64,000 nucleotides of DNA from an uncultured Gemmatimonadaceae bacterium (GTDB lineage: Bacteria; Gemmatimonadota; Gemmatimonadetes; Gemmatimonadales; GWC2-71-9): assembly GCA_964571795.1 (NCBI GenBank), contig CAZNDK010000012.1:2029-66028 (forward strand), given 5' to 3'. Positions 41,937 through 60,916 of this stretch are shown in pieces. Below the pieces are notes generated by a model. That model was given only the letters and a program-made list of their open reading frames with translations, ran no database searches and was not told where the DNA came from. The position numbers and the translations under genes are program-made. The first letter of the stretch is position 1. Each line of letters begins with the position of its first letter.

Positions 41937-41940
<4 letters not shown>
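41503..41940 (-). CDS. Small membrane protein (3 predicted TM segments), unknown function
   Basis: 145-aa ORF. Its start overlaps the regulator's stop (ATGA-type 4-nt overlap). It has a Gly/Ala/Pro-rich cytoplasmic head followed by three hydrophobic helices. Confidence 0.6.
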
Positions 41941-43315
<1,375 letters not shown>

Positions 43316-43319
<4 letters not shown>

Positions 43320-43966: not shown

Positions 43967-44779
43967 TCAGTCGCCTCCCTGGCCGGCGGCGAGGGGGAGC
44001 AGACCGCCCCGCCGATAGCCGCGGGGGTCCAGCACGGCTTCATCGAAGCCGAGCGCGAGGAGCCCGGCGGACACGGCGCCCCACCGCGCCTCGACCAACG
44101 GACGCTCCGAGGGAAGCACTTCCACGCTGGCCCGGCCACCCAAATGGCGGACCCGCACGTCACCCTGCACCCCGCACTCCCGGACGAGCACCTCCGCCTG
44201 CTCCACCTGGCGCAAGCGCTCCGGGGTGACGGACAGGCCATACTGGATGCGGCTCGAGAGGCACGGCGCGGCGGGAGCATCCCAGGTCGGCAGGCCCAGC
44301 TGGCGGGCTGCCTCGCGCACGTCCGCCTTCGACCAGCCGAGTTCCACGAAGGGCGAGTGCACCCGCCGGGCCGTTCCCGCCTCGGCGCCGGGCCGGTGCT
44401 CCCGGAGGTCGTCGGCATTGGTCCCGTCGAGCAGCACGTCAAATCCCCGTTCGGCGGCCACCGCCCCGAGCACCCGCCAGAGTTCCGATTTGCAGAAGTA
44501 ACACCGATTGAGGGGATTGGCGGTGTAGGCGGGGTCGGCGAGTTCGTGGGTGTCCACCTCGAGGAGCGGCACGGCAAATCGGGCCGCGAGCTCGAGGGCG
44601 GTGCGCCACTGCACTTCCGGGTAGGAGGCGCTCCGGCCGATCACGGCCAGGAAGCGGGACGGCCCCAGGCGCCTGGCGCCGACGACCGCGAGCACTGCCG
44701 AATCCACCCCGCCGGAGTAGCCCAGCACCGCGCTCGGGAACGAACCCAGGTGCGCGTCCAATTGGTCGATGGTCGCCAT
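43967..44779 (-). CDS. larE: PP-loop ATP-utilising sulfur transferase, LarE family (three-Cys type)
   Basis: 270 aa. PP-loop [10 protein letters not shown]. Other motifs: NRCYFCK, RPG, APCLSSR, and [14 protein letters not shown]. It aligns by eye with Lactobacillus LarE architecture. Confidence 0.8.
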
Positions 44780-45231: not shown

Positions 45232-48039
45232 CTAGGGCTGCGCCGGCGGCGCCTTCCCCTTCGCAAAATCACCGGCGGTGATGACCGTCATCTTGGCCGG
45301 ATCCACGAACGCCCGGAATCCGGCGCTCACCTGGGCCGGGGTCAGCGCGCCGATGGCGTTCTCGAGCTTGGCGTCCCACGCCATGGTCCGCCCTAGGAAG
45401 AGGCGGTCGGTCAACTGGCCCGCCAGCTGGCCGTCGTCGGCCCGGGCGAGCTGCAGTTGCTGCAGGTACCCGGCCTTCCCCTTGGTCACTTCCTCCGTGG
45501 TGAAGCCCCCTGCCACCGCCTTCTCGGTCACCTCGTGGAAGGCCGTGACCACCTTTTCGGTGTTCTGGGGCGCCGAGATCGCGTAGACCAGCAGCTGCCC
45601 CGCCTGGTCCTCCGAGCTCACGTCGAGCGCACTCCCCGCGCCGTAGCTCAGCCCTTCCTCCTGGCGCATGCGGACGATCAGCCGGGAGTCGAAGGCGGAG
45701 CCGCCGTAGATGTAGTCGCCGATGGCGAGGGCCGGGTAGCCGGGATCGTCCTCGCTGAGGCGGAGGTTGGTGCCCGCGAGGAGGATGGCGTTCTCCTTGT
45801 CGGGCGTTTCGATCTGTTCGGTCACGGCAGGCCGGTCGCCGTAGAGCTCGGGAATCCTGGCGTACGCCGCCGGGCTCTTCCAGCTCCCGAACACCTCGGT
45901 TACCACCGCAGATACTTCTCCCGGGTCGAAGTCGCCGACCACCGCCACCTCGCCGGCGCCCACGCCATAGAACTCGACCCAGAAGCGCTTCGCGGCGTCC
46001 ACCGTCACCGCCTTGGTGTTGGCGATCCGCTCCTCGATGGTGCTCACGTAGCGCGGGTGGCCGGCCGGGTAGGCCTGCGTGGCCCGCGCGAGGGCGGTCT
46101 GCGCCAGCGCGATCGGGTCGGTCAGCTGGGTCTCCAGCCCGGCCAGCCGCTCGCGCTGCAGCGTCACGAACTCCGACGAATCGAAGCTCGGCTGCCGCAG
46201 GATTTCCCCGACCAGGCGAAGCACCGCGGGCAGGTTGGCGCGGACCGTCGTGATGGACACGGTGGCGCCTTCCGCGGTGCCGCGTACGCCGACCTGCGCC
46301 TTCAACCGATCGAATTCATCCTTGATCTGCTGGCGGGTGTGGACCGTAGTGCCGCGCACCAGCATCGAGCCGGCGAGCGAGGCTGTGGTCGCCTTGCCCA
46401 TGAGGGCGGGCTCGGTGCCAAAATGCAGGCGGATGGTCGCGTTGACCGTCTGCCCCCGTGTGGCCTTGGGCAGGAGAGCCACCTTCATGCCGCTCGGCAA
46501 GGTGCTCCGGGCCGTCCGGGCGTCAATGTTGGCCGGAGTCGGGTCGAACGCCTCACCGGCCGTCATGGTGGTGTCGCCCTTGTAGTCCTTCACCAGGGCG
46601 GCGATGTCGGGCACGGGCGGAATCGTCGCGCGGTCCGGCTTGTCGGTCGGCAGGAACACGCCGAGCGTTCGGTTGCTCGGCTTGAGGTACGCCGCGGCGA
46701 CGCGCTGGACATCCGCCGGCGTCACTGCGCGGACCCGGTCGCGGTTGATGAAGATGAGCCGCCAGTCGCCGCGCGAGGCCCATTCGCTGAGCGCCACGCC
46801 CACCGCGTCGGTCTGCGTGAGACTCAGCTCGATGTTCTTGAGGATGGTCTGCTTGGCGCGGGCCACCTCCTCGTCGGTTGGCGGGCGAACCGTGGCCGAG
46901 TCGAGCGTGGCCAGGAAGGCCGCCTGCGCCGTGGCGAGGGTGTCCTCGCGGCGGAGCTGCGCGCCGGCGATCAGCAGGCTCGGCTGGTACAACTGGTAGG
47001 CGTAGGACCAGACGGACGCGGCCCGCTTGGTCTCGACCATCGCCTGGTAGAGCCGGCCGCTAGGCGCCGACCCCAGCACCTGGGTCAGGACCAGGATGGG
47101 GGCGAAATCGGCGTCGGAACCGGCGGGCACGTGATACCCGGCCAGCAGGACCTGCTGGTCGCCGACTCGACGGAGGGTGACGCTGCGCTCCCCGTCCTGT
47201 ACCGGTTCCACGGTGTATGTCGGCCAGATGCGGTTGGCGCCGTCACGGTTCGGGCGGGGGATCGGCCCGAAGAGCTGTTCGATCCGCTTGAGGACCGTGG
47301 CCTCGTCGAACTTGCCCGCCACGACCAGCACGGCGTTATCCGGCTGGTAGTATTTCCGGTAGAACCCCTGCAGCCGTTCGATCGGCACGTTCTCGATGTC
47401 CGACCGGGCCCCGATGGTGGAGTGCCCGTAATTGTGCCAGAGGTAGGCGGTGGAGAAGACCCGCTCCTCCAGGATGGACTGCGGCTCGTTTTCCCCGAGC
47501 TCGAATTCGTTCCGGACCACCGTCATCTCGGACTTGAGGTCCGCGGCGGCGATGTACGAGTTGACCATGCGGTCGGCTTCGAGCCGGAGCGCCCAGTCGA
47601 CGTTGTCCGCGGTGGCCGGCACCGATTCGAAGTAGTTGGTGCGGTCATACCAGGTGGTCCCGTTGAACTGCGCGCCGTGCGCGGTCATTTCCTCGCCGAT
47701 CTTCGGGTGCCCGGTGGAGCCCTTGAAGAGGAGGTGCTCGAGCAGGTGCGCCATCCCGGTCTCGCCGTAGCTCTCGTGCCGGGACCCCACGAGGTACGTG
47801 ATGTTGACGGTGGCCACCGGCTTGGTCTGGTCGGGGAGGAGGAGGACTTGCAGCCCGTTGGGCAGCCGGTACTCGGTGATTCCCTCGACGGTCGTAACCT
47901 TGACCGCCTGGGGCGCCTTCGGCGCCACCCGAGGGGGCCGGGCCGGCTTCGCGACGGGCTGCTGGGCCGCCATCGGAACGGCCAGGATCGTGAGCAGGTG
48001 GACGGTCAGGGCAATTCGGGTCCAGCGACGCGGGCGCAT
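45232..48039 (-). CDS. M16 (pitrilysin/insulinase) family zinc peptidase, double-length form
   Basis: ORF 45232-48114. ATG 48039 is preceded by GGAG and gives the signal peptide MRPRRWTRIALTVHLLTILAVPMAAQ. HxxEH motif (GMAHLLEHLLFKG). About 935 aa, equivalent to two M16 active/inactive domain pairs. Confidence 0.9.
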   Translation of the reverse strand: MRPRRWTRIALTVHLLTILAVPMAAQQPVAKPARPPRVAPKAPQAVKVTTVEGITEYRLPNGLQVLLLPDQTKPVATVNITYLVGSRHESYGETGMAHLLEHLLFKGSTGHPKIGEEMTAHGAQFNGTTWYDRTNYFESVPATADNVDWALRLEADRMVNSYIAAADLKSEMTVVRNEFELGENEPQSILEERVFSTAYLWHNYGHSTIGARSDIENVPIERLQGFYRKYYQPDNAVLVVAGKFDEATVLKRIEQLFGPIPRPNRDGANRIWPTYTVEPVQDGERSVTLRRVGDQQVLLAGYHVPAGSDADFAPILVLTQVLGSAPSGRLYQAMVETKRAASVWSYAYQLYQPSLLIAGAQLRREDTLATAQAAFLATLDSATVRPPTDEEVARAKQTILKNIELSLTQTDAVGVALSEWASRGDWRLIFINRDRVRAVTPADVQRVAAAYLKPSNRTLGVFLPTDKPDRATIPPVPDIAALVKDYKGDTTMTAGEAFDPTPANIDARTARSTLPSGMKVALLPKATRGQTVNATIRLHFGTEPALMGKATTASLAGSMLVRGTTVHTRQQIKDEFDRLKAQVGVRGTAEGATVSITTVRANLPAVLRLVGEILRQPSFDSSEFVTLQRERLAGLETQLTDPIALAQTALARATQAYPAGHPRYVSTIEERIANTKAVTVDAAKRFWVEFYGVGAGEVAVVGDFDPGEVSAVVTEVFGSWKSPAAYARIPELYGDRPAVTEQIETPDKENAILLAGTNLRLSEDDPGYPALAIGDYIYGGSAFDSRLIVRMRQEEGLSYGAGSALDVSSEDQAGQLLVYAISAPQNTEKVVTAFHEVTEKAVAGGFTTEEVTKGKAGYLQQLQLARADDGQLAGQLTDRLFLGRTMAWDAKLENAIGALTPAQVSAGFRAFVDPAKMTVITAGDFAKGKAPPAQP

Positions 48040-48070
48040 GATCGAACTCCAGAAGGTCGTTGCACGGCAC

Positions 48071-48107
48071 GGCGGCAATCCCGGGAATAGAATCCGGGAC
48101 TGCCGCC
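48071..48107 (-). terminator. Strong GC-rich hairpin downstream of the TonB-receptor/lipoprotein unit
   Basis: ggcggcaatcccgg (48071-48084) pairs with ccgggactgccgcc (48094-48107), a 14-bp stem with a 9-nt loop. The single A/C mismatch on the plus strand becomes a G-U pair in minus-strand RNA. No U-tract. Confidence 0.4.
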
Positions 48108-48129
48108 GATGCAAACTGGATGGAAGCGG

Positions 48130-48614: not shown

Positions 48615-50699
48615 TCAGTTAGGATGGAGAAAGCGCACCGACACCAGCAGGCTGCGTGGCGCGCCGGGATTGATGTAGCCGGAGGCGCGGATCTCCGGAT
48701 AGGTCGTGTCGAACACGTTCAGCAGGTCTACGTCGAGGCTGGTAAGCGGGCTCACCGCGAAGGAGCCGCCGAGGTCCACGACGGCGTACGGCTGGGTGGT
48801 GACCCCCTGCTCGCCGATCGGCGTGTAGGGGCCGGTGAACCGGGCCAGCGCGTACACCGACATGTTGTCCCGGGGAATGAACTCGGCGCCGATCCGCCCG
48901 AAATACTGGGAAACCCCCGGCACCGCGTCGCCGGGCTGGAGCGGCTCGTCGTGGAAGCTCGGCCGCGGGGGCCGGATCGTGCCCAAGTCAAACGATACGT
49001 TCACCGGCTCGGCGATCCCGGTCACCTCGGCGTCGTTGAGCGTCCCGCTGGCCTGCAGCGTGAGGCGGCTGCCGACCTGCAGGGCCGCCGTGACCGACAC
49101 CCCGCGGCGCCGCGTCGTGCCGGCCGCCTCGATGTCGAGGGTCACCGGATTTTTGATCCGCTCGTTGGCGGTGTTGAACTGGAAGAAGGACAGCCCCACC
49201 TGGAGCGGGCCGCTGTTGTACTCGGCGCCGACTTCCCCCGCCCAGGCGGTCACCAGCGGCCGGCTGGGGTCCGCAATGACGCCGATCGGCCCGCGGAACC
49301 CGTGCGCCAGCGAGGCGAGCACACGGAACTTGTCCGACACCAGGTAACTGGCGCCAATCTTCGGGCTCACTGCCGGGTCGGTGGCCTCCTGCCAGTCGGG
49401 GAGCGAGTCCAGCGTGTTCAGGCTGTGGTAGTCGACGAGGTCGCCCCGGAGCCCAAGGTCGTAGAGAAACCGGGTCCCGAGCATCCCACGCCAGCGGACG
49501 AACATGCCGAGCGCCTGGTAACGCCCCTCGTTCCCCTGCGCGGCGGCTTCGGCCACCCGCTCGTCGGTTTCGTCGAGCGTGTAGGTCGTCCAGTCGGCGC
49601 GCCCGCCGATCCCGACGCTGAACTCACCGTCGTCGGTGGCGTGGTTGACCTGCGCCTGCAACCCGAGCGCCTCACGATCATCCCGTTCGGCGGTCTGGCC
49701 CAACACACCGTCTTCGGGCAGCGTCAGGAACACCGTGGACTTCCCGAGTTGCCCCCAGAGCTGGGTCTCGAGGCTGGTTCGGCCCGACAACGGCACGCCG
49801 TACCGGAGCGTCCCGATGTAGCGCTGGGCGTCGCCGCCGTCCGTTGTGTCTGCGGCCGCGGTGAGGTTGCCGTCGTTGTAGTCCTCCACCGACACGTAAC
49901 CGGGGGAGTTCCACGTCGAGCCATACGCGTAGAAGCCGCCCTCGATCCGTCCCTTGCCGACGGCGCGCCAGCCGCGGAGCACGCCGTTCCCCAGCCAGTA
50001 GTCGGCGTTCTCACGCCAGCCCTGCTCCCGCTGACCCGAGAGCGACACTAGCGCGCCTGATTGCTCGTGCCGGTACCCGGTCGTGACCCATCCGCGAACG
50101 TCGCCGAAGGTGGTCGCGCCGAGCGAACCTGCCGCGGCCGCGGCGTCGGCCGAGGTATAGACCTCCACCACGCCTCCGAGGGAGAAGTCCCCGTACAGCA
50201 CGCTGGCCGGCCCGTGGATGACCCGCGTCGTGCTGATGACACCGGGAGAGATGATGCTCCAGTCGGCGTACCCTTCGACGTGGCCGTGGATCGGAAGGTT
50301 GATCGCCACGCCGTCGAGTACCAGCAACACATCGGACGAATGGTCAGACGTGAAGCCGCCGATGACGACGTTGGACGCGAAACCCGGCCCCTGCCCCTGC
50401 TGGTGCACTTCGATCCCCGCCGACCGGCCGATCAAGTCGTACGCGTTGGCAGCCGGCGCCCGCTGCACGGCTTCGGTGCTGACCTCAACCGTGGCGACCG
50501 GCGGCGCCACGGCCTTCTCCCGCTGCCCCGTCACCGTCACCGGCGCAAGCACCGTCACAGGCGTGCTGTCGGGACGGGCGGGAGTTGCCTGCGCCGAAGC
50601 CGAACGCGCTGCCACCGACAGGGCACACGCGCACAGCCAGAACGCCAGGAACAGGCGCCCGGAGACTTGGATGCAACGGGTGTGGCAGGCAACGGCCAT
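48615..50699 (-). CDS. TonB-dependent outer-membrane receptor
   Basis: 694 aa with a signal peptide ending SASAQ. Plug domain: ...APVTVTGQRE...DLIGRSAGIEV...VLLVLDGVAINLP...ISTTRVIHGPASVLYGDFSLGGVVEVYT. A long beta-barrel follows. The exact start is uncertain. Confidence 0.9.
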   Translation of the reverse strand: MAVACHTRCIQVSGRLFLAFWLCACALSVAARSASAQATPARPDSTPVTVLAPVTVTGQREKAVAPPVATVEVSTEAVQRAPAANAYDLIGRSAGIEVHQQGQGPGFASNVVIGGFTSDHSSDVLLVLDGVAINLPIHGHVEGYADWSIISPGVISTTRVIHGPASVLYGDFSLGGVVEVYTSADAAAAAGSLGATTFGDVRGWVTTGYRHEQSGALVSLSGQREQGWRENADYWLGNGVLRGWRAVGKGRIEGGFYAYGSTWNSPGYVSVEDYNDGNLTAAADTTDGGDAQRYIGTLRYGVPLSGRTSLETQLWGQLGKSTVFLTLPEDGVLGQTAERDDREALGLQAQVNHATDDGEFSVGIGGRADWTTYTLDETDERVAEAAAQGNEGRYQALGMFVRWRGMLGTRFLYDLGLRGDLVDYHSLNTLDSLPDWQEATDPAVSPKIGASYLVSDKFRVLASLAHGFRGPIGVIADPSRPLVTAWAGEVGAEYNSGPLQVGLSFFQFNTANERIKNPVTLDIEAAGTTRRRGVSVTAALQVGSRLTLQASGTLNDAEVTGIAEPVNVSFDLGTIRPPRPSFHDEPLQPGDAVPGVSQYFGRIGAEFIPRDNMSVYALARFTGPYTPIGEQGVTTQPYAVVDLGGSFAVSPLTSLDVDLLNVFDTTYPEIRASGYINPGAPRSLLVSVRFLHPN

Positions 50700-50851: not shown

Positions 50852-51232
50852 TCAGGCGATGCGGGCGGGTGGGGCCGTGGCGAAGGGGCGGGAGTGCTCA
50901 GGGGCGGAATCGGACGCGACGCCAGCGGTGGAGACGATTGCTGAGCGGGTGGCGGGCGTCACGACGGCGACGGGAATCGACGCGGGTTGCGTCAGGGAGG
51001 CCGGCGCGGAAACGGCGCAGGTGCCGAGGCAGCGGCACTCGGTGGGCGCCCGCTCGTGTTGCGACGAGGAGTGATGCCCCGCGTGCGCGTGCGAATCGGG
51101 CGCGTCGGAAGCCGACGCCGCCGCGAGGGACTGGGGGCAGGCGTGCAGGATGGCGGGCGCAGCCATGACGAGGCCGAACCAGAGCCCCAGCAAGCCCGCC
51201 AGCGTCCGTGACCACATCCCCATGGTGCGCAT
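50852..51232 (-). CDS. Small membrane-anchored or exported His/Cys-rich protein upstream of the TonB-dependent receptor (paralog-like to ORF 704-1087)
   Basis: ORF 50852-51241 has a TTG start; in-frame ATGs lie at 51232, 51223 and 51217. Features: an N-terminal helix (LAGLLGLWFGLVMAAPAIL), HAC, a His-rich stretch (DSHAHAGHHSSSQHE), a CRCLGTC motif, and a Pro-rich tail (...ATAPPARIA). Confidence 0.55.
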   Translation of the reverse strand: MRTMGMWSRTLAGLLGLWFGLVMAAPAILHACPQSLAAASASDAPDSHAHAGHHSSSQHERAPTECRCLGTCAVSAPASLTQPASIPVAVVTPATRSAIVSTAGVASDSAPEHSRPFATAPPARIA

Positions 51233-51268
51233 GCCGACCAATGTACTCGGAATCGGCGGGGCCGTCCA

Positions 51269-52846
51269 TTACCCGGGCGCGGGGACGGCCGCGCCTTGGG
51301 CCGGCCCCGCCTCCGGAGCCCGCCGCCGGTCGAGCGTGCGGTACTGTATGGCCTCGCCCACGTGCGCCACGCCGATCTCGGCCGCGCCGTCCAGGTCGGC
51401 GATGGTGCGGGAAATCTTGAGGACCCGATGGTAGGCGCGCGCGGACAGCCCGAGCCGCGCGACGGCCTGGCGCAACAGGACCTCGACCGGCTCGGTCAGG
51501 CGGCAGAATCGGCGGATTTCACGGGCGGTCATGTGCGCGTTGGCGTGCAGGCCGGCCATGCCGACAAAGCGCTCGCGCTGGCGCCGCCGTGCCCGCTCGA
51601 CCCGCTCCCGCACTGTGGCGCTCGACTCCTCCGGCGCCTGCGAGGCGAGGTCGCGATAGGCCACGGCGGGCACCTCGAGGTGGATGTCGATACGGTCGAG
51701 CAGCGGCCCGGAGAGCCGGGAGAGGTAGCGTTCCACGTGCATCGGTGTGCAGTGGCAGCGGTGGGTCGGGTCGCCGAGGTACCCGCAGGGGCAGGGATTC
51801 ATGGCGGCGGCCAGCATGAAGCGCGCGGGGTAGCTGAGGGTGATGGCGGCGCGACTCAGGGTGACTGCACCATCCTCCAGTGGCTGCCGAAGTACCTCCA
51901 GCACGTTGGTCCGGAATTCGGGTAGTTCGTCGAGGAAGAGCACGCCGCCGTGCGCGAGGCTCACCTCGCCGGGACGTGGCGTGGAGCCACCCCCGATGAG
52001 CCCTGCATCGCTGATGGTGTGGTGTGGTGCCCGGAAGGGGCGGACCGTGCACAGCGACTGGCCCGGGGCCAGCATCCCGGCCACGCTGTGCACCTTGGTG
52101 GTTTCCAGCGCCTCGTCGAGCGCCATGCCAGGGAGGATGGAGGGGAGCCGGCGGGCGAGCATTGTCTTCCCCGCCCCGGGCGGACCGACGAGCAGGATGT
52201 TGTGCGCCCCGGCGGCGGCCACTTCCAGGGCTCGCTTCGCCCCGGCCTGCGCCCGCACGTCGCCAAAATCCACGACGTCCGCCGCCCGCTCGGCCATCAG
52301 CGCCCGCACGTCCACGCTGGTGGAGGCGAGCATCGGGCCCGCTCCGAAGTGCGCGCAAACCTCCGCCAGCGTGCGGGCGCCGCGCACCTCGATCCCCTCG
52401 ACGACCGCGGCCTCCGGAAGGTTCGCCTCGGGCAGCACGACGCCCCTGAGGCCTGCCTTCCGTGCGGCGAGGGTCATCGAGAGGGCGCCGCGCACCGGGC
52501 GGAGATCACCTTCGAGCCCCACCTCTCCCACCACGAGCTGCTCGGGGAGGCCCGCCGCATCGAGTTGCTCGCTCGCGGCCAGGATGCCGAGCGCAATCGG
52601 GAGGTCGAAGCCTGAGCCGTCCTTCCGCACGTCGGCCGGGGCCAGGTTGACCGTGATGCGCTTGAGTGGAAAGACGTACCCTGCGTTGACGAGCGCCGCA
52701 GTGACCCGCTCCCGGCCCTCCTTGACCGCGCCGTGGGGCAGGCCCACCGTGGCGACCGAGGGGAGGCCATTCGTGATGTCCACCTCGACCTCGACCAGGT
52801 AGGCGTCGATGCCGAGGACGGCGGCGGAACGGATTCGGGCAAGCAT
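51269..52846 (-). CDS. comM: YifB/ComM family Mg-chelatase-like AAA+ ATPase
   Basis: ORF 51269-52930. ATG 52846 is preceded by GGAGGTG and gives MLARIRSAAVLGIDAYLVEVEVDI... It has a Lon-S5-like N-domain, Walker A GPPGAGKTMLARR, VLFLDELPEF, and a C-terminal ...HRVLKISRTIADLDG. Confidence 0.93.
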   Translation of the reverse strand: MLARIRSAAVLGIDAYLVEVEVDITNGLPSVATVGLPHGAVKEGRERVTAALVNAGYVFPLKRITVNLAPADVRKDGSGFDLPIALGILAASEQLDAAGLPEQLVVGEVGLEGDLRPVRGALSMTLAARKAGLRGVVLPEANLPEAAVVEGIEVRGARTLAEVCAHFGAGPMLASTSVDVRALMAERAADVVDFGDVRAQAGAKRALEVAAAGAHNILLVGPPGAGKTMLARRLPSILPGMALDEALETTKVHSVAGMLAPGQSLCTVRPFRAPHHTISDAGLIGGGSTPRPGEVSLAHGGVLFLDELPEFRTNVLEVLRQPLEDGAVTLSRAAITLSYPARFMLAAAMNPCPCGYLGDPTHRCHCTPMHVERYLSRLSGPLLDRIDIHLEVPAVAYRDLASQAPEESSATVRERVERARRRQRERFVGMAGLHANAHMTAREIRRFCRLTEPVEVLLRQAVARLGLSARAYHRVLKISRTIADLDGAAEIGVAHVGEAIQYRTLDRRRAPEAGPAQGAAVPAPG

Positions 52847-52896
52847 GAGGGCGGCACCTCCGTGAAGAGCTCCACGGTAGCGCCGCCCCGTTCCGC

Positions 52897-52923
52897 CTCC
52901 CCCGTCAATCGACCGTGGGGGAG
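52897..52923 (-). terminator. Hairpin downstream of the DUF2911 array (weak terminator candidate)
   Basis: ctccccc (52897-52903) pairs with gggggag (52917-52923), a 7-bp stem with a 13-nt loop that could extend through G-U pairs. No U-tract. Confidence 0.3.
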
Positions 52924-52942: not shown

Positions 52943-53869
52943 CTAGGGCACTCGAGTCCCCACGGCCTGCACCTGGTCATTCCTCCCACGAATGACGAAC
53001 CCGGTGGCCCGCCCGTCCGTCACGTCGAATTCCGTGGCCAGGCCTGGCTGCGCGTCGAAGATGCCGTATTCCTCGACGAACCCCGGGTAAAAGGCATCCG
53101 AGCCGATCGAGATCAGCAACGCGTGGTACGGCGAGTCCGAGTCTCCCGGCACCTCCCAGTCCATCTTGAGCGTGTCCGGAGTGTAGGAGACTCTCCACGT
53201 TTCGAGAGGCGGTTCGGAGTCCGGTTTTGCGGCCGTGGAATCCGGCAGCCAGCGGAGGGAGTATGTCCCGACGTACCGGCCGGCCAGCTCGGGGGCAAGC
53301 GTCAGCGGATGCGACGGTGTGACGGCAACCCGCAGCACGACCGCCCGTCCTGCCCAGGCCATCCGGAGCGCCGTCCCAGTCATGCTCACCTCGGTGAACG
53401 ACCAGGTGAGCAGCTCGGGGCCGCTCACCGAGTCGGGGGTGACCGCGAATCGTATCTGGGCGCTGTCGGGCTTCGGGTGCGCGGTGTGGAACTGCTTCGC
53501 CTTGGGATCGAGGATGACGGTCCAGTCCGTCGGCTGGACCTCCATCCAGACGGAATACTTGCCCTTCGGAAGCGGATGCCCGTTGATGGACACGTCCTTG
53601 TCCACCTCCAGCGTCGTGGCCCAGTTGGCGCCCGGCGTCCAGACCTCGCCCCAGGTGACCACCTTGCCGTAGACCGGCACGCGCGCCCGGCTGTTCGGCC
53701 GGCTGTACTCCACGGTCAGCGTGGTGCCATCAACCGTTTGGGCGACGATCGCGTGCTCGCTCGCGCGCACCTGGGCGCGGGCGCCGGCGGGAACGGCCAT
53801 CAGGGTGGCGACGACGATGGGCAACCAGCTGGCGTTGGGCATCCGTACTCCGGCAAATCGAGACATCAC
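52943..53869 (-). CDS. DUF2911 domain protein, copy 1 (plus a shared C-terminal module)
   Basis: 308 aa. The start is GTG 53869 or ATG 53866, either one overlapping the copy-2 stop. Signal peptide ...AGARAQ. Motifs: VRASEHAIVAQTVDGTTLTVEYSRP...VWTPGANWATTLEVDKDVSINGHPLPKGKYSVWMEV. Tail: ...EFDVTDGRATGFVIRG. Confidence 0.85.
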   Translation of the reverse strand: MMSRFAGVRMPNASWLPIVVATLMAVPAGARAQVRASEHAIVAQTVDGTTLTVEYSRPNSRARVPVYGKVVTWGEVWTPGANWATTLEVDKDVSINGHPLPKGKYSVWMEVQPTDWTVILDPKAKQFHTAHPKPDSAQIRFAVTPDSVSGPELLTWSFTEVSMTGTALRMAWAGRAVVLRVAVTPSHPLTLAPELAGRYVGTYSLRWLPDSTAAKPDSEPPLETWRVSYTPDTLKMDWEVPGDSDSPYHALLISIGSDAFYPGFVEEYGIFDAQPGLATEFDVTDGRATGFVIRGRNDQVQAVGTRVP

Positions 53870-54801
53870 TTCGTGCGGGTGCCCTTCCCAATCACTTCGT
53901 CATTCTCCGCCCGGACCTCGAAGCCGGTCGCCCGGCCGTCCTTCACCGTGAACTCGATGACCAGCTCGTTCGTGACGTCGAAGAGCTTCCCGTCGAGCAT
54001 GGCGCCCGGGTTGAACCAGTTGTCGCCGATCTTGATGAGCACCAGGTGCTGCCACTCCGGGAAGGGGGGCGGCACCCATTCGGTCAGCAGCATGCCGTTG
54101 GAGTACGTGACCGTCCACACCGAGGATTTCGCGAAGGCCGAGTCCGGCTGCTCCTCGGTCGTGTCGCGCGACACCCAGGCGTATTGGTAGGTGCCGGTGT
54201 AGCGCCCCGCGATGTCCGCCGGCACGGTGAGCGGATGCGACGGCGGCACCGTGACCTTGAGCGACACCGACCGGCCCGCCCAGGCCATCCGCATCGTGGT
54301 GCCCGTGGCCGACACCTCCGGGAACGACCAGGTAAGGACGTCCGGCCCGGTCCCCGCCTCCGGCGTCACGGCGAACCGCACCTGCGTGCTGTCGGGCTTG
54401 GGGTGCGCCACGTGGAAGAGGCGCGACTTCGGGTCGAAGATGACGGTCCAATCCTTCTCCTGGACCTCCATCCAGACCGAGTACTTCCCCTTCTTGAGCG
54501 GGTGGCCGTTGACGGTGATGTCCTTGTCCACCTCGAGCGTGGTGGCCCAGTTGGCGCCCGGGGTCCACACCTCGCCCAGCTCGATGACGGTCTTCGGAGC
54601 CTTGCCGGAGGCCGGCGGCGCCTTCGGCCAGATTGCCATGCGGCCGCGCACCTGCGGCCGGCTGTATTCGATGGTGAGCGTGGTGCCGTCAACGGTCTGC
54701 GCGATCACGGCGTGCTCGCTGGCGCGGATTTGCGCGCGAAGGGTTGCAGGCAGGGCAAGGCAGGCGGCGGTCAGCAGCGCAAACGCGCGGGCGCGTGTCA
54801 T
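53866..54801 (-). CDS. DUF2911 domain protein, copy 2
   Basis: ORF 53866-54876. ATG 54801 gives MTRARAFALLTAACLALPATLRAQ. The motifs match copy 1, with an extra MAIWPKAPPASGKAPKTVIEL insertion. Tail: ...EFTVKDGRATGFEVRA. Confidence 0.85.
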   Translation of the reverse strand: MTRARAFALLTAACLALPATLRAQIRASEHAVIAQTVDGTTLTIEYSRPQVRGRMAIWPKAPPASGKAPKTVIELGEVWTPGANWATTLEVDKDITVNGHPLKKGKYSVWMEVQEKDWTVIFDPKSRLFHVAHPKPDSTQVRFAVTPEAGTGPDVLTWSFPEVSATGTTMRMAWAGRSVSLKVTVPPSHPLTVPADIAGRYTGTYQYAWVSRDTTEEQPDSAFAKSSVWTVTYSNGMLLTEWVPPPFPEWQHLVLIKIGDNWFNPGAMLDGKLFDVTNELVIEFTVKDGRATGFEVRAENDEVIGKGTRTK

Positions 54802-54850
54802 CGGGACTCCCAGGAAATGCGTGAACATCGGTCCAGGCCGCGGCGATGCG

Positions 54851-55750
54851 CTACGGGATCCGGCTCCCGCGGCCAACCACCCTGTCTCCAGGCCCCCGGA
54901 TTTCGAATCCGGTCGCCCGCCCGTCCGCGAGCGCGAACTCGAAGACGAGGTCGGTCACTTCGTCGAAGATCGCGCCGTCCACTAGGGCCGCGGGGCGGAA
55001 CCAGGTGTCGGCGAGCGGGAGGAAGAGGAGGTGCTTCCACACGTCGAACGGTGGACGAGCCCACTCGCCAAGCATCCGGCCGTTCGCGTAGGACAGCACC
55101 AGCCCCGGCGTATCGCCGGCGGTCGGCGCGGGTGCCGGAGCCGCGGCGGCCGTCGGGCCGAAGATGATCGCGTAGTTGCCGGTGTACCTCCCCGCGACAT
55201 CTTCGGGAACGGGAGGCGGGGGTACCACCGGCACCATGATACGGAGCGTCACCGACTTGCCTGCCCACGCCATGCGCAGGCTGCAGCCCGCCGACGTGAC
55301 CTCGGTGAAGGACCAGGTCAGCAGGTCGGGCCCGCTGAGGTCCTCCGGTGTCACCGCAAACCGCACCTGGGCGCTGTCGGGTTTCGGGGGGTTGGTGTGG
55401 AAGGCCTTCACCTTCGTGTCGAGAATGACCGTCCATTCCGTCGGCTGCACTTCCATCCACACCGAATAGGTGCCCTTCGGGAGCGCGCGGCCGTTCACCA
55501 CCACGTCCTTGTCGACCTCGAGCGTGGTGGCCCAGTTGGCCCCCGGCGTCCAGACCTTGCCCCACGGAATGACCGCCCCGAACACCGGGGACCGCCCGCG
55601 CGCCTGCGGCCGGCCGTAGTCCACGGTGATTCGCGTTCCGTTCACCACCTGGTACACGCCGGCGCGCTCGCTGGCGCGGACCTGCGCGGCCAGGGGGGAG
55701 GCGGCCCCGAGGGCGATCACGGTGAGGCAGCACAGACGAGAGAGAGGCAT
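54851..55750 (-). CDS. DUF2911 domain protein, copy 3
   Basis: The last 299 aa of ORF 54851-56167. ATG 55750 gives MPLSRLCCLTVIALGAASPLAAQ. Same motifs as the other copies. Tail: ...EFALADGRATGFEIRG. Confidence 0.85.
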   Translation of the reverse strand: MPLSRLCCLTVIALGAASPLAAQVRASERAGVYQVVNGTRITVDYGRPQARGRSPVFGAVIPWGKVWTPGANWATTLEVDKDVVVNGRALPKGTYSVWMEVQPTEWTVILDTKVKAFHTNPPKPDSAQVRFAVTPEDLSGPDLLTWSFTEVTSAGCSLRMAWAGKSVTLRIMVPVVPPPPVPEDVAGRYTGNYAIIFGPTAAAAPAPAPTAGDTPGLVLSYANGRMLGEWARPPFDVWKHLLFLPLADTWFRPAALVDGAIFDEVTDLVFEFALADGRATGFEIRGPGDRVVGRGSRIP

Positions 55751-55778
55751 GAAGGCTCCGTTCAGCGGTTGACCGCGG

Positions 55779-56186
55779 TCACCCGTATCGGGCGTCGATG
55801 GCGGCCCGGATTTCGTCGAGGGTCTTCCCCTGGCCGTGGAGTCGGGCCGCCAGGCGACCCTCGCCCTGGCAGATTTCGCACATCCGGGCCATGCCGGCGT
55901 TCTCGTAGCACGACAACAGGGAGTAGAAGCCGGGGAGGTCGGCGCAGCCGCACTGGCAGCGGATGCCGTCGACGATCTGCGGCACTTGCCGCACCGCCTG
56001 GAAGGCCGATGCGCAGGCCGGAAAGTCCACCAGCGCGGAGTCGGGAAGCACGTTGGCGGCCGTGATGCCGGGGCGAGGCGTGGGATGCCCCGGGCCCCGC
56101 CGGGCGGCGCCCCACAATGGCTGCGCCGTGGCCGCGCCCACCGCGGCCGTACCGCAGCAGGCCGCAATGAATTGACGCCGGGACAT
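55779..56186 (-). CDS. Cys-rich protein with a twin-arginine (Tat) signal, PCYCGC-motif-like
   Basis: The last 135 aa of ORF 55779-57080; the rest of that ORF is antisense to the kinase. ATG 56186 gives MSRRQFIAACCGTAAVGAATA (an SRRxFI Tat motif). The mature region has 7 Cys: FPAC, IRCQCGC, LLSC, MCEIC. It ends LDEIRAAIDARYG. Confidence 0.75.
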   Translation of the reverse strand: MSRRQFIAACCGTAAVGAATAQPLWGAARRGPGHPTPRPGITAANVLPDSALVDFPACASAFQAVRQVPQIVDGIRCQCGCADLPGFYSLLSCYENAGMARMCEICQGEGRLAARLHGQGKTLDEIRAAIDARYG

Positions 56187-56260
56187 GCCGCTCGGGTGCC
56201 TCAGGCGACCTCCAACGAGAATGACTCGGGAATCTTTGGAAGATATGGGGCGCGGGCTCG

Positions 56261-59200
56261 TCACGCGAGTTCCACCACCACGACGGTGCCCCGCCCCTCC
56301 CGGCTCTCGACGCCGACCGTTCCGCCCCACCCCTCCACCAGGCGACGCACGATCGCGAGTCCCAACCCCGACCCGCTGGTCGTCGTGGAAAAGCGCGGCT
56401 CGAAGATCCGGGGCAGCAGCTCCTCCGGAATGCCGCGTCCGTCGTCCCGCACCTCGAGCCGCCGCGGCGCAACGCGCACGATGATCCGCCCGGCGCCCGC
56501 CTGGCGGGCGTTTTCGAGCAGGTTGACCAGCACTTCGCGAATCTCGTCGGGGCGCGCCCGTCCCCAGGCCTCGCCGTCCGTCTCGAGCACCACCTCCGTC
56601 CCCTCCCCCGCCAGCCGATAGAGCTGGACCACCTCGGTGGCCACGGGCCCGAGCTGCATGCGGTCGGGCGCGATGCCCGGACCCGCGGGCGCGCCGAACC
56701 GGCTGAAGGCGCGCGCGATGGTGTCGAGCCGCTCGATTTCCGCCAGGATCCGATCCGAGGTCTCCTCGAGCGCCGGCCCCAGCGCGTCGGGCCGCTCGCG
56801 GTGCACTCGGCGCAGGTGCTGGATGCCGAGTCGCATCGGGGTGAGCGGGTTCTTGATCTCGTGCGCCACCTGCCTCGCCATCTCGCCCCACGCCAGCACC
56901 CGCTCGGCGCGTGACAGTTCGGTGATGTCGTTGAGGGCGAGCACCGCCCCGCCGATGTCGTCGCTGAGCGGGGCCAGGGCCACCGCAAGCCGGTGCGTGC
57001 CGTCCTCGAGCTCGGCCTGGCTGAGCGCGGCGTCGGGCCGCGCGAGAAAGGCCGTGACCGCCTCCGCCAGCGTGGGCCACTCCCCATGGAGGGCCGCCCG
57101 GAAGTCGGTGCCGACGGCCAGCGGCTTCCCGAGGAGTTCCTCCGCCCGGGGATTGGCGACGAGGACGGTTCCGTCGGGCCCGATGCCGACGACCCCGGTC
57201 GAGACGGTGGACAGCACCGCCGCGGTCGTGCGGCGCGATTCCTCAAGCGCCACGCGGCTCTGCCGAATGTCGTCGGCCATGCGGCCGAAGGCGGCGACCA
57301 CCGGCTCGAACTCCGGCGGCGGGGTGCCGCTCTGTTCCGGCAGCGGCGCGCCCCGCCCGAGGGCAAGCGCCGAGCGCCGAAGGTCCGCCACCGGCCGGGC
57401 AAGCGCCTCTGCGACCTGCCTCGCGGCCACCAGCGCACCCGCGAGGCCGAGCAGCGTGGCCAGGAGCAGCAACCACCCGAGGTCGGCCTGGCTCGCCGCC
57501 AGCCGAAGCGCGTCCGAGCCGCGCGGGGCGGCAAGCACGACCATCTGCCCGGGATCGCCGGGACGCTCCACACGGTACCCGATCCGTCCACCCCGCCCCA
57601 GCAACGGCTCCGGCGCGGCCGATTCGACCTCTCCCCCGAACGCCAGCGAACGGAAGGCCGCCGGATCCTGTAGCGGGGCGAGCACGCCGAGGTCGGCCAG
57701 CACCGAGTCGGTCGCGGCCACCCGCGAGCCCCCGTGGTACAGCGCGAGCTCCGCGCGGTAGCGCGCCCCAAGCTCGTCGAGGCCGGTCGTGGCGGGCCCC
57801 TGGCCCTCGGCGGCGGCGCCCCGGGCCGCAACCACATCGCGTAAGACCTGCGTGATCGCTTCGTCGCGCTGCTGCTCCGCTTCCCGGTCGAGCCGGGAGA
57901 GTTCCCAGAAGGCGAATCCCACCGCCGGGATCAGGAAGAACCCGGCCAGCGCGATCGCGACCCTGACCCGGAATGACCTGCCGAGGCGCCGCCAGCCCGG
58001 CATGGCGAGCGGCATGCCGGCGATCGCCTCGGCGAGGAGCCAGATGAGGGCGAGCGCCGCCGCGTCCAGCGCCACGACGAGCGCGCCCCGGACGAGGAGC
58101 GGGAATGGCCCGCGGAGATCCACCTCCGCGTGGGTGAGGCGCACTCCGTCCACCGATTGCACCGCACGCTCTCCGTGGATGACCCACCCCTCGCGCCGCC
58201 AGCGCAGCCGGCGCGTATCGGGCTCCAGTCCCGGCGTCGGCGGCGAGAGCGTCATCCGGTAGGGCGCACCGTCGAGCGCGGCAGGATTGAGCAACGCGCC
58301 GAGCCGGTCGGGCACCAGCAGCCGGGTCTTCGGCCCGAGCGCCACCGTGAGGAGGTCGCCTGTCGCGAGGCGGACCGCCAGCAGCTGGTACACCCCCGGC
58401 ACGCCCGGCACCGTGAACACCCGTTGCGAGTCGGCGGGGCCGAGCGCGAGCGCCGCACGGTTGAGTTCCGAATCCGGCAGGGTGAGCGAGTCCAGGCCCA
58501 GGGCCGCGCGTGCGGTACCGTCCGGCCGCGAGAGGGCGAGCCTCGCTGGATAAGCCTCGAGCCCGGCGCGGGCCTGGAACCATCGCGCGTAGAGCTGTGA
58601 CGCGTCCGCCGGCGGCGGCCCGAGCCGGAGCTTCGTCCCGGCCCGGTCGAGCAGCGGGATGACGACCGGGTCGACCAGGATCCCCTGCCGCATTGCGTCC
58701 TGCTGGGCCATCTCCAGCCGGCTCTCGACGGTGGCGCCCCACGTGAGGAGCGCCGCCGCGCTGCCGGCCACGGCCGCGATCCCGCCGATCGCCGCACCCC
58801 GGTTGGCGGGGCGCGCCACCAGCAGCAACCCCGGAAGCCAGAGATAGCTGTACCACCAGTCCCACCCGTTGCCCGGGTGCCAGGCGTAGAGTCCCGCCCC
58901 GGCCGCCACGAAGGTGAGCGCCACACCCAGCCATACCGACGTGGACCGGCCATGGGCGGCCGGTGCGCCCCGGAAGAGGGCCGCCGCGATGACGGCGGGG
59001 GCCATGGCGGCCATCGCCAGCGTGAGTTGCCAGCCGAGCCAGAGCCCGAGGGTCACTCCGGCGGGAGGGGGCGTGATGCCGCGGGCCAGGTACCGAAGCA
59101 CGACTGGCGCGCCCAGGAGCAGCAGGATTCCGAGCGGCAGCGAGAACCACCGGCGGCGCGGCGGCCGGTTCCACAGCGCCACGGCCAGGAGCGTCGCGAG

Positions 59201-60244
59201 GAATGCGAGGGCGGCGAGCGCGCCCGCCGAGCGGCTCAATGGCCCCAGGGCGGGGCGGAAGAAGGCGATCGGCGAAAAGAACAGGTCGAACCCGAGCGCC
59301 TCCCCCACCGGCGCGCGTGCCAGCGCGGCCACGCCGAGCGCGAGCACCCCGTAGCGCGCGAGGGCGCTGCGTGCGGCCAGCCCCATGAGCACGACCGCGA
59401 GGGCGAGGAGCCAGCCGACCGCCCGGGTGCCCCGAGCCAACGTTGCGGCGGTGGCGTCGCCCAGCGCGGGGGGCACCGGCTCCACGCTGAACAGGAGCCG
59501 GGGGCCCGCCGTGGTCGGCTCGGTGTAGTCGAATACATCGGGAAGGTCGGGCGCGGTCCCCGCGGGGTAGACCCGGAGGCCGACTCCGGTGCGGGCACGG
59601 AAGTTCTCGGTGACGGATTGCACCCGTTCCGGGACGGCGGGCGATGCCCACACGACGACCGTGCCCACGGCGCGGCGTCCGTCGGGCGCATCGCGGGCCA
59701 CTTCGAGCACGAGATAGAAGGGATTGTCGACGGTGGAGACCGGGCGGCCGTCGCCCCGGGGTGGCAGGCGGTGCGAGCCGGCCCACGCCTGGACGCGGCC
59801 TCCCTCACCCAGCAGCGCCACGCCGGCCTCGATGGGCGCGCCGGCCACCGCCCGTTCCAGCGCGGCGAAGGCGGCTTCCGGGTCGGCCGGGGCGGCGCTG
59901 GCCACGTCGGCGAGGCGGCTGGCCAGCAGGAAGGCGGCGTGGAGGTCGCCGGCCAGGCGATCGGTGGCACGCTGCACCCGTGCAGCCTGGATGGCCGGCC
60001 AGTGACGCTCCACCTGGTCAAGCCGCCAGGCGGTGACGAGCGGCGCGAGCGCCAGCATCGCCAGCGTGAGGCCCACCGCGCGCGGTCGCCATCCGCCCCA
60101 TGGCCGCAGGCCCGGGACGGCGACCAGCGCGCCCACGCAACCGACCACGATCCACCCCGTCGCGGGCGCGCGCAGCCACTCCCCGGCAGCGAGGACCGTC
60201 AGGGCGGCTCCGGGGAGCCACCAGCGGAGCGAGGAGCGGTTCAC
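56261..60244 (-). CDS. Large polytopic sensor histidine kinase (NtrY-like transmitter)
   Basis: 1327 aa, GTG start. Order of parts: N-terminal TM segments, a periplasmic segment, a block of about 8 TM helices, a second extracytoplasmic segment, TM, HAMP, PAS, the H-box HEIKNPLTPM (His codon 56861-56863), then HATPase motifs (LVNLLENARQAG, RDDGRGIPEE, SGSGLGLAIVRR). Confidence 0.9.
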   Translation of the reverse strand: MNRSSLRWWLPGAALTVLAAGEWLRAPATGWIVVGCVGALVAVPGLRPWGGWRPRAVGLTLAMLALAPLVTAWRLDQVERHWPAIQAARVQRATDRLAGDLHAAFLLASRLADVASAAPADPEAAFAALERAVAGAPIEAGVALLGEGGRVQAWAGSHRLPPRGDGRPVSTVDNPFYLVLEVARDAPDGRRAVGTVVVWASPAVPERVQSVTENFRARTGVGLRVYPAGTAPDLPDVFDYTEPTTAGPRLLFSVEPVPPALGDATAATLARGTRAVGWLLALAVVLMGLAARSALARYGVLALGVAALARAPVGEALGFDLFFSPIAFFRPALGPLSRSAGALAALAFLATLLAVALWNRPPRRRWFSLPLGILLLLGAPVVLRYLARGITPPPAGVTLGLWLGWQLTLAMAAMAPAVIAAALFRGAPAAHGRSTSVWLGVALTFVAAGAGLYAWHPGNGWDWWYSYLWLPGLLLVARPANRGAAIGGIAAVAGSAAALLTWGATVESRLEMAQQDAMRQGILVDPVVIPLLDRAGTKLRLGPPPADASQLYARWFQARAGLEAYPARLALSRPDGTARAALGLDSLTLPDSELNRAALALGPADSQRVFTVPGVPGVYQLLAVRLATGDLLTVALGPKTRLLVPDRLGALLNPAALDGAPYRMTLSPPTPGLEPDTRRLRWRREGWVIHGERAVQSVDGVRLTHAEVDLRGPFPLLVRGALVVALDAAALALIWLLAEAIAGMPLAMPGWRRLGRSFRVRVAIALAGFFLIPAVGFAFWELSRLDREAEQQRDEAITQVLRDVVAARGAAAEGQGPATTGLDELGARYRAELALYHGGSRVAATDSVLADLGVLAPLQDPAAFRSLAFGGEVESAAPEPLLGRGGRIGYRVERPGDPGQMVVLAAPRGSDALRLAASQADLGWLLLLATLLGLAGALVAARQVAEALARPVADLRRSALALGRGAPLPEQSGTPPPEFEPVVAAFGRMADDIRQSRVALEESRRTTAAVLSTVSTGVVGIGPDGTVLVANPRAEELLGKPLAVGTDFRAALHGEWPTLAEAVTAFLARPDAALSQAELEDGTHRLAVALAPLSDDIGGAVLALNDITELSRAERVLAWGEMARQVAHEIKNPLTPMRLGIQHLRRVHRERPDALGPALEETSDRILAEIERLDTIARAFSRFGAPAGPGIAPDRMQLGPVATEVVQLYRLAGEGTEVVLETDGEAWGRARPDEIREVLVNLLENARQAGAGRIIVRVAPRRLEVRDDGRGIPEELLPRIFEPRFSTTTSGSGLGLAIVRRLVEGWGGTVGVESREGRGTVVVVELA

Positions 60245-60246
60245 CC

Positions 60247-60259
60247 GCGTATTATACGC
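60247..60259. promoter_or_regulatory. Perfect 13-bp palindrome gcgtatTatacgc supplying overlapping -10 boxes to both divergent genes
   Basis: It fills most of the 18-nt gap between GTG 60244 (kinase, minus) and ATG 60263 (creatininase-family, plus). The plus strand has TATTAT (60250-60255), 7 nt before the ATG. The minus strand has TATAAT (60256-60251), 6 nt before the GTG. There is no room for a Shine-Dalgarno on either side. Confidence 0.4.
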
Positions 60260-60262
60260 ATA

Positions 60263-60916
60263 ATGAGTCCGACCACGCCCTGGCGGCTGAAGGAGTTACC
60301 CCCGGAGGAGGTGGCGCGCTGCCTGGCCCGCCGGCCAGCGCTCATCGTCCCCGTGGGGTCCACCGAGCAGCACGGCGCGCATCTTCCCCTGGGCATCGAT
60401 ACCATCCTGGTGGAGCGGCTCGCCGACGATCTCTCCGCCCGCTTCGGCGTGCTGCGCGCGCCGGCGGTGGAATACGGCGCCAACCGCGATCCGCACCGGC
60501 CGCGGCCCGGCAGCGCGCCGCTCGGCCGGAAGACGCTTCACCGGCTGATGAACGAGCTGATCGAGGCGTGGGAGGTCGGCAGCGGCGTGCGGGAGTTCGT
60601 ACTGGTCACCGCCGAGGGCCACGAAGCGCACCAGGAGGCGCTGAGCACGCTGCTCGTCAAGCACGCGCGGGTGCAGGTCGTGGACATCTTCTCGATCGAC
60701 TTCGGCGACCTGCTCGAGGCGCCCGGGATGCCAGCGCACGGCGGGGAGCTCGACACCTCCCTGCTGCTGCACCTCGCGCCGTCGCTGGTGCGGGTCGAAC
60801 TCGCCCGGGATACCGCCATCGCGCGGCCGTCCCTCGCCACCGCCGAAAAGGGGGCGCGATTGTACCAGTACATCCTGGACCGCATCGCGGTCCGCTGCCT
60901 GAACCCGGAGTCCTGA
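60263..60916 (+). CDS. Creatininase (creatinine amidohydrolase) family protein
   Basis: The last 217 aa of ORF 58877-60916. ATG 60263 gives MSPTTPWRLKELPPEEVARCLARRPALIVPVGSTEQHGAHLPLGIDT (family signature GSxEQHGxHLPL) and ...HGGELDTS. Confidence 0.88.
   Translation: MSPTTPWRLKELPPEEVARCLARRPALIVPVGSTEQHGAHLPLGIDTILVERLADDLSARFGVLRAPAVEYGANRDPHRPRPGSAPLGRKTLHRLMNELIEAWEVGSGVREFVLVTAEGHEAHQEALSTLLVKHARVQVVDIFSIDFGDLLEAPGMPAHGGELDTSLLLHLAPSLVRVELARDTAIARPSLATAEKGARLYQYILDRIAVRCLNPES

Follow-up and report, generated by a model that had tools for sequence, protein, structure and literature searches.

We analysed a stretch of 64,000 nucleotides (nt) from an uncultured Gemmatimonadaceae bacterium, hereafter the window, whose sequence is that of contig JBGANJ010000002.1 of GCA_044222375.1; all coordinates refer to it unless a locus of a relative is named, and such loci are labelled L001, L009, L081, L095 and so on. 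The minus strand of the region 52943-60244 carries five open reading frames (ORFs), all present where a first-pass annotation, made from the sequence alone, had placed them: a giant polytopic histidine kinase, a Cys-rich protein and three DUF2911 paralogues, called here alpha, beta and gamma (Table 1). It had been proposed that the kinase monitors an envelope or metal/redox condition and that the four exported proteins form its effector set. Comparison with related genomes gives a different picture, namely an unreported DUF-DUF gene pairing that occupies a variable position within a conserved set of signalling genes, and not a sensor-effector operon. The best explanation, which we consider probable, is that the five-gene run combines two units independent of each other, a conserved kinase backbone and a self-contained exported pair.

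Table 1. Genes and sequence elements of the locus, in window coordinates
Feature	Position	Strand	Description and basis
Giant polytopic histidine kinase	56261-60244	-	1327 amino acids (aa); Pfam and NCBIfam matches, hydropathy
Tat-exported Cys-rich protein (PCYCGC/CYCXC-like)	55779-56186	-	135 aa; family scans, alignment, AlphaFold2; export predicted
DUF2911 paralogue alpha (first)	54851-55750	-	PF11138, E 7e-36; predicted Sec signal
DUF2911 paralogue beta (second)	53866-54801	-	PF11138, E 5.5e-31
DUF2911 paralogue gamma (third)	52943-53869	-	PF11138, E 6e-34; start 53869, 53866 or 53842
Creatininase-family gene, divergent from the kinase	60263-60916	+	PF02633, E 1.7e-37
Palindrome GCGTATAATACGC	60247-60259	.	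In the 18-nt gap between the divergent start codons (kinase GTG 60244, creatininase ATG 60263)
TATCTT block	56240-56245	-	Candidate -10 element in the spacer between the kinase and the Cys-rich gene
Hairpin 1	52897-52923	-	7-bp outer stem; no T-run after it
Hairpin 2	52848-52889	-	About 18 bp, stronger; contains GGAGG, the Shine-Dalgarno sequence of comM, directly ahead of its ATG
comM/yifB (Mg-chelatase-like AAA+)	51269-52846	-	Pfam match
Small 129-aa ORF	50852-51241	-	Hydrophobic N-terminus, His-rich stretch HAHAGHHSS, Cys residues
TonB-dependent receptor	48615-50699
M16 peptidase	45232-48114
NAD-synthase-like gene	43967-44779	-	PF02540 match
NtrC-type response regulator (REC, sigma-54 AAA+, HTH_8)	41937-43319	-	Pfam match

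The spacings of 74, 28 and 49 nt reported between the kinase, the Cys-rich gene and the first two DUF2911 genes are exact, whereas the overlap described at the last DUF2911 junction depends on the start codon. With GTG 53869 or ATG 53866 as the start, the genes overlap in the TGATG manner. With ATG 53842, the codon chosen in public gene calls and the one that has a Shine-Dalgarno sequence (GGAG), a 23-nt gap remains. The export signals attributed to the four non-kinase proteins are reproduced by our predictions, with a putative twin-arginine translocation (Tat) signal on the Cys-rich protein and Sec signals on the DUF2911 proteins. The first-pass annotation had given the non-kinase proteins no function. 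Its DUF2911 assignment was corroborated, and the Cys-rich protein is not without a family but close to PCYCGC/CYCXC.

The exported proteins are tightly linked to each other. A metagenome scan anchored on the Cys-rich protein yielded 80 loci with homologues of 54-78% identity, 73 of them with at least 250 nt of downstream DNA. A DUF2911 gene follows directly in 72 of these 73 loci, starting -13 to +127 nt after the Cys-rich stop codon (median 45 nt), and is found directly upstream in the 73rd; the two genes are thus immediate neighbours whatever surrounds them. The DUF2911 gene is present in one copy in 26 metagenomic loci, in two copies in 10 and in three copies in one. Gene order within the pair is not absolutely fixed, since L097 (5092-7288) has the order DUF2911, Cys-rich gene, DUF2911, L158, although its DNA extends 6 kb downstream of the Cys-rich gene, has its DUF2911 gene on the upstream side alone, and L139 also has an upstream copy, with just 213 nt of DNA downstream. 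When distant DUF2911 proteins served as anchors, the Cys-rich gene was directly upstream in three cases out of four. The fourth speaks against a strict association: in L180 (4001-4879), a DUF2911 gene of the same two-domain type (44% identity) lacks a Cys-rich gene over a distance of 4 kb. Since this DUF2911 gene stands alone, the partnership is not obligatory. Its neighbours in L180 are an acetyltransferase gene and a LytTR two-component system. The first-pass annotation had implied that the four exported proteins go with one another, and this point is nevertheless strongly supported.

The linkage of this pair to the kinase was assessed in a kinase-anchored survey with one genome per species, in which the flanks were searched with the window proteins. 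It comprised 46 orthologous Gemmatimonadota loci with both the sensor and the transmitter present, 39 of which extend at least 1.5 kb downstream. Cys-rich and DUF2911 genes stand beside the kinase in a single one of the 39, L001, where the kinase is 74% identical to that of the window and DUF2911 is present in one copy. Starting from the other side, only 12 of the 57 metagenomic loci with enough upstream DNA show the kinase ahead of the Cys-rich gene. The proposed sensor-effector set consequently fails the adjacency test from both anchors, and this reading is not supported beyond a narrow clade.

Within that clade, some data do weigh against a complete separation of the two units. Adjacency is kept in the 12 metagenomic loci as well as in L001, L081, L095 and L096, that is, where the kinases are at least about 66% identical, and both read-through from the kinase and a lineage-specific co-regulation are possible. 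In this lineage the genes could then form one operon, the exported proteins being either the regulated output of the kinase or its accessory periplasmic sensing partners. The co-directional arrangement with short gaps would agree with this, and a terminator scan finds no canonical terminator between the genes. We nevertheless regard a single operon as improbable. The linkage is missing in 38 of the 39 kinase loci and in 45 of the 57 Cys-rich-gene loci, and the architecture of the kinase, about 1.3 thousand residues long, is the same with or without the pair. Furthermore, the only conserved element of the spacer between the kinase and the Cys-rich gene, in an alignment of five loci with this gene order, is a TATCTT or TATGTT block suggestive of an internal promoter. 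TAnnTT-like elements precede the Cys-rich gene in other neighbourhoods too, and the pair probably has its own promoter at the TATCTT block. In addition, scanning 11 loci for sigma-54 motifs ahead of the Cys-rich gene gave no such promoter, though the likely partner regulator of the kinase is a sigma-54 activator. These results correct a guilt-by-association reading: the neighbours of the kinase should not be annotated here as its regulon.

Clustering of the flanking ORFs revealed three recurrent neighbourhoods of the pair: A, with the kinase and comM; B, with M24/M14 peptidases and Ppx-PhoU-Pst genes; and C, with a Ser/Thr kinase and a GMC oxidoreductase. The pair is also found near FG-GAP proteins, near DUF5916 and an M28 peptidase, and near AhpC and an MFS transporter. 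Neighbourhood B occurs in L086, L097, L098 and about 13 metagenomic loci, where the pair is located downstream of the M24/M14 peptidases and tail-to-tail with Ppx-PhoU-PstB-PstA-PstC-PstS; this may reflect either a functional link, possibly to an oxyanion, or synteny within one clade. The same clustering gave no third conserved partner gene common to the three recurrent neighbourhoods. Such occurrence in several unrelated settings, together with the contents of the kinase-comM interval, which differ between genomes, could also suggest that the pair travelled on a mobile element or arrived recently by horizontal transfer, and that its position beside the kinase has no meaning. This explanation was rejected as very unlikely: neither recombinase genes (transposase or integrase) nor a tRNA or flanking repeats were observed, G+C is uniform (69-75%), the paralogues are old and their arrangement is stable across a clade. 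Ordinary genome rearrangement is enough to explain the pattern of relocation.

The other unit, to which the kinase belongs, is itself conserved. A divergent creatininase-family homologue lies less than 500 nt from the kinase in 23 of 31 orthologous loci, and comM is found downstream of the kinase in 17 loci, at a distance of 40 nt to about 8 kb, the interval being occupied in other genomes by unrelated genes. The NAD-synthase-like gene comes after comM in L055, L030 and L002, while orthologues of the NtrC-type regulator (60-66% identity) are located downstream of kinase-comM in L055, L042, L041 and L030. L055 displays the complete order, kinase, comM, NAD-synthase-like gene, NtrC-type regulator and aldehyde dehydrogenase; Longimicrobiales loci and Gemmatimonas phototrophica likewise have comM followed by the NAD-synthase-like gene and the NtrC-type regulator. 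The window keeps this backbone with two insertions. The first, between the kinase and comM, consists of the Cys-rich gene and the three DUF2911 genes; the second, between comM and the NAD-synthase-like gene, comprises the 129-aa ORF, the TonB-dependent receptor and the M16 peptidase. As a result, the regulator is about 13 kb from the kinase in the window, compared with 4-9 kb in other lineages. The NtrC-type gene had been mentioned earlier only as the nearest response regulator. It is indeed not adjacent, but its synteny with the kinase extends to distant lineages, and since it is conserved in the backbone neighbourhood of the kinase, it is plausibly, and even likely, the cognate partner.

Some features of the surroundings can be added. 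The 129-aa ORF, which has no Pfam match, sits just upstream of the TonB-dependent receptor and may be metal-related. Beyond the creatininase-family gene lies a TolC-like outer-membrane efflux gene (PF02321; 61619-63259, plus strand), and in L081 OEP and RND efflux genes flank the cluster on both sides.

The kinase itself consists of a sensor of about 980 aa followed by HAMP-like, PAS, HisKA and HATPase_c domains. It is a two-component histidine kinase according to its matches to PF00512 (30.1 bits) and PF02518 (88.6 bits), and H1128 together with the H-, N- and G-box residues is invariant in an alignment of 11 orthologues. A hydropathy scan indicates about 11 membrane segments, with large loops at residues 76-268, 502-719 and 781-921. 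The sensor region alone has no match in Pfam. A search of 1.84 billion proteins gave 584 representative relatives of the sensor; among the best 150 of these 584, full-length relatives are 1.2-1.4 thousand residues long and colinear with the query. The nearest relatives of the window are labelled Gemmatimonadales, and orthologues of the kinase of about 1210-1390 aa occur across Gemmatimonadota. The sensor is a lineage-restricted module of stable architecture, found in a limited protein family.

The start of the run had been assigned to a palindromic promoter-like element. The palindrome GCGTATAATACGC does exist, but a two-hexamer scan finds no sigma-70 site in it. It contains TATAAT at -12 to -7 of the kinase GTG and TATTAT at -13 to -8 of the creatininase ATG, so that each hexamer stands 6-7 nt ahead of its start codon inside one palindrome. 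L001 and L081 have exactly the same element, whereas loci further removed lack it; L009 has TGTAAT at the same spacing before GTG. This arrangement suggests two back-to-back -10 elements that would drive divergent leaderless or near-leaderless transcripts.

At the opposite end, hairpin 1 was recovered where the run had been said to stop, but it is not called by the terminator scan, and an end of the run at this point is not obvious, since the last gene of the run is followed after 96 nt by comM on the same strand. Hairpin 2 of the window recurs in L001, L081 and L095, but its conservation does not reach distant loci. The spacer preceding comM, with both hairpins, has a predicted RNA folding energy of -55.5 kcal/mol (z = -4.4), and an Rfam scan of the window between 50 and 62 kb gave no matches. 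Hairpin 2 might serve to control translation, or it might be a terminator devoid of a U-tract.

To turn to the exported pair, the Cys-rich protein carries a predicted Tat signal, scoring 19.1 bits against the TIGR01409 cut-off of 16.7, with the motif SRRQFI where S-R-R-x-F-L is expected. In an alignment of 58 homologues the twin Arg is nearly invariant, and the conserved set includes the twin-arginine motif, HPxPRPGIT, CxCGC, C93 and CxxCQG, that is, six Cys and one His. PF13798 (PCYCGC) matches the window protein with 22.6 bits, below the gathering score of 25, the motif being RCQCGC and not PCYCGC; at a lenient E <= 10, this profile matches all 58 homologues, with a best E of 5e-8. The match to NF041379 (CYCXC) has E 3.6e-19 over profile positions 13-89 of 90, and its 68.6 bits remain under the equivalog cut-off of 90. 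Judging from these scores, the protein is a subfamily related to NF041379 and not its equivalog. The AlphaFold2 model is helical, with a pLDDT of 87.9 that exceeds 89 from residue 40 onward.

The N-terminus of this protein may be somewhat longer than annotated. There is no near Shine-Dalgarno sequence in the region upstream of the annotated ATG (56187-56215), and a GGAGG is found 22 nt upstream. An in-frame CTG (about 56204), 4 nt past the GGAGG, would add LRHPSG, which resembles the VTHGSG N-terminus of the L001 homologue, encoded from a GTG behind the same GGAGG. Because of the GGAGG/CTG arrangement and this resemblance, the true start may lie upstream of the annotated ATG.

A local similarity to the cytochrome c maturation protein CcmH suggests a periplasmic thiol-redox or metal role for the Cys-rich protein. 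With hhalign, E. coli CcmH is matched with a probability of 85-86% and a score of 36.2; with 120 shuffled CcmH sequences, the highest score was 15.9. With a relaxed alignment threshold, the CxxCQ of the Cys-rich protein aligns with the CcmH redox motif CPKCQ, with a 13-residue gap. Foldseek comparison of the model with the PDB returned three matches only, including CcmH (2hl7, target-normalised TM 0.51). Several results count against this similarity and the functional model built on it. The confident hhalign stretch covers 23-24 residues only, corresponding to the C-terminal helix, and because a designed protein, too, is matched by the GK[ST]xxEI motif of this helix, the signal is in part generic. 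None of the 58 homologues matches PF03918 (CcmH/NrfF/CycL) even at E <= 10, and phmmer does not retrieve CcmH. Moreover, PDB sequence searches with single proteins and profiles gave nothing for either exported protein, and Foldseek searches of the PDB with the Cys-rich and DUF2911 models gave no match at E <= 0.001 (best E-values 3.1 and 0.04). Matches of the fHbp/TbpB-like and galectin-like type, with TM < 0.25, were not used.

Selenocysteine in a UxxC motif usually marks redox catalysis. The CYCXC family is listed in a selenoprotein review with members that carry UxxC (PMC13188914), which suggests a redox-active site in the Cys-rich family.

Tat export is typical for proteins that acquire a cofactor before export, and Sco proteins work with the PCuAC β-sandwich chaperone. 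By analogy, the Cys-rich protein might be mainly metal-binding; it could chaperone or store a metal, or be a small Fe-S or Zn protein that leaves through Tat already folded, and the DUF2911 proteins might receive or deliver the metal. We hold this only as a tentative alternative. It would fit the predicted Tat export, with cofactor loading before translocation, and the conserved residues, namely a metallothionein-like CxCxC, three more Cys and an invariant His; in Bacillales, a PCYCGC lipoprotein is encoded beside the gene of an Fe3+-binding protein (PMC13068155). On the other hand, no metal-related gene recurs beside the pair, the UxxC members of the family point rather to redox catalysis, and the DUF2911 proteins, which conserve neither Cys nor Met and possess a single invariant His, offer a poor set of metal ligands.

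All three DUF2911 paralogues belong to PF11138, with 123.6, 107.8 and 117.4 bits against a gathering score of 27, over profile positions 1-145. In paralogue alpha, a predicted Sec signal is followed by the DUF2911 β-domain and by a C-terminal β-domain of about 120 aa; its AlphaFold2 model (pLDDT 88.4) is all-β with two domains. The sole Pfam hit among the C-terminal domains is a weak match of paralogue beta to DUF3471 (E 0.075), and a weak likeness to the DUF3471 barrel appears in two independent ways, by sequence profile and by structure comparison. Arg and Trp are prominent among the invariant residues, which include a single His; Asn, Thr and Glu residues are conserved as well, while the alignment contains no conserved Cys or Met. 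We therefore rejected the idea that the DUF2911 proteins are thiol-redox clients of the Cys-rich protein. Since they conserve Arg, Trp, Asn, Thr and Glu but no Cys, they are more likely ligand binders, and since they have neither a CXXCH motif nor a conserved Cys, they are not apocytochrome-like clients either. A DUF2911 member of Sphingobacterium, likewise exported, has been seen in a secretome (PMC4666044).

At the DNA level, a diverged tandem repeat with a period of 926-985 nt and 63-77% identity is apparent across the three DUF2911 genes, and the three paralogues are 50-57% identical to each other. In a neighbour-joining tree, built with no bootstrap, they fall into three orthologous groups common to relatives with one or two copies: alpha goes with the copies that stand first in L081 and L095, beta with the single copy of L001 and the second copy of L081, and gamma with the second copy of L095. 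Because the window copies are distributed among groups shared by relatives, this pattern implies old duplications followed by differential loss.

Taken as two independent units, the locus can be described as follows. The first unit consists of the divergent creatininase-family gene, the giant NtrY/AtoS-type kinase, comM, the NAD-synthase-like gene and the NtrC-type regulator, with the kinase most likely signalling to this sigma-54 activator. The second consists of the Tat-exported Cys-rich PCYCGC/CYCXC-like protein and one to three Sec-exported DUF2911 proteins. In the lineage of the window, the pair occupies the variable kinase-comM interval, with DUF2911 diversified into three old lines of which relatives lost different ones. 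As a proposed mechanism, the Cys-rich protein would fold in the cytoplasm, where its CxCGC...C site might take up a metal or cluster, and leave via Tat in the folded state; in the periplasm, its CcmH-like CxxC would act as a redox-active dithiol. The two-domain β-proteins would bind a ligand or substrate on which the Cys-rich protein acts, and extra paralogues would widen the ligand range. This working model, a Tat-exported dithiol or metallo-protein cooperating with ligand-binding β-proteins, is one that we put forward with considerable reserve.

With similar caution, the pair could represent a previously undescribed periplasmic system, widespread in Gemmatimonadota, that handles an envelope ligand such as an oxyanion, a glycan or a cofactor, and in which a CcmH-like dithiol or metallo-protein serves a small, diversifying family of two-domain β-proteins without a solved relative of their fold; the kinase sensor would be a separate, lineage-specific input module wired through comM to the sigma-54 activator. 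The literature searched mentions DUF2911 and PCYCGC/CYCXC in passing only; neither a functional study nor the pairing of the Cys-rich and DUF2911 genes was found there. The function-less families PF11138 and PF13798/NF041379 gain a concrete hypothesis, a near-invariant gene pair with one common Cys-rich component and variable β-protein partners, and the confident models of both exported proteins make co-expression, pull-down, redox or metal assays straightforward. For a phylum that has received little study, the analysis also identifies a signalling backbone that is conserved from the giant kinase through comM and the NAD-synthase-like gene to the NtrC-type regulator, and it nominates a cognate regulator for an apparently orphan kinase.

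Each component can be compared with a known system. The kinase resembles the sensors of NtrY/NtrX and AtoS/AtoC in its order of HAMP-like, PAS, HisKA (with the H-box HEIKNPL) and HATPase_c domains and in its likely partner, an NtrC-family sigma-54 activator; AtoS is its best NCBIfam match, and public annotation calls its homologues NtrY. However, the AtoS model scores 163 bits against an equivalog cut-off of 646 and covers only the C-terminal 340 residues. Unlike NtrY and AtoS, the window kinase has a sensor of about 980 aa without Pfam match, with about 11 membrane segments and three predicted periplasmic loops, and its partner regulator is not adjacent but lies beyond comM and the NAD-synthase-like gene.

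The Cys-rich protein shares with CcmH/NrfF/CycL a CxxCQ motif followed by a ...L..GK(S/T)..EI.....ARYG helix, and it is likewise a small helical domain predicted to be periplasmic. The CcmH group is diagnosed by the redox-active LRCxxC motif and by its association with cytochrome c maturation genes, whereas no ccm gene was seen in any pair neighbourhood examined. Furthermore, the Cys-rich protein is 13 residues shorter between the CxxC and the last helix, and it carries an additional CxCGC...C insertion and a predicted Tat signal. With PCYCGC (PF13798) and CYCXC (NF041379, "OS_HP4"), it has in common the CxCGC motif, a downstream Cys, the CxxC and a C-terminal helix; it differs by its RCQCGC motif, by a Tat signal instead of a lipobox and by the near-constant pairing with DUF2911. 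As for DUF2911 (PF11138), the N-terminal residues of all three paralogues, about 145, match the family end to end (E 1e-31 to 1e-36), but the window proteins add to the plain DUF2911 domain a C-terminal β-domain of about 120 aa and are encoded in one to three copies behind a Cys-rich Tat protein.

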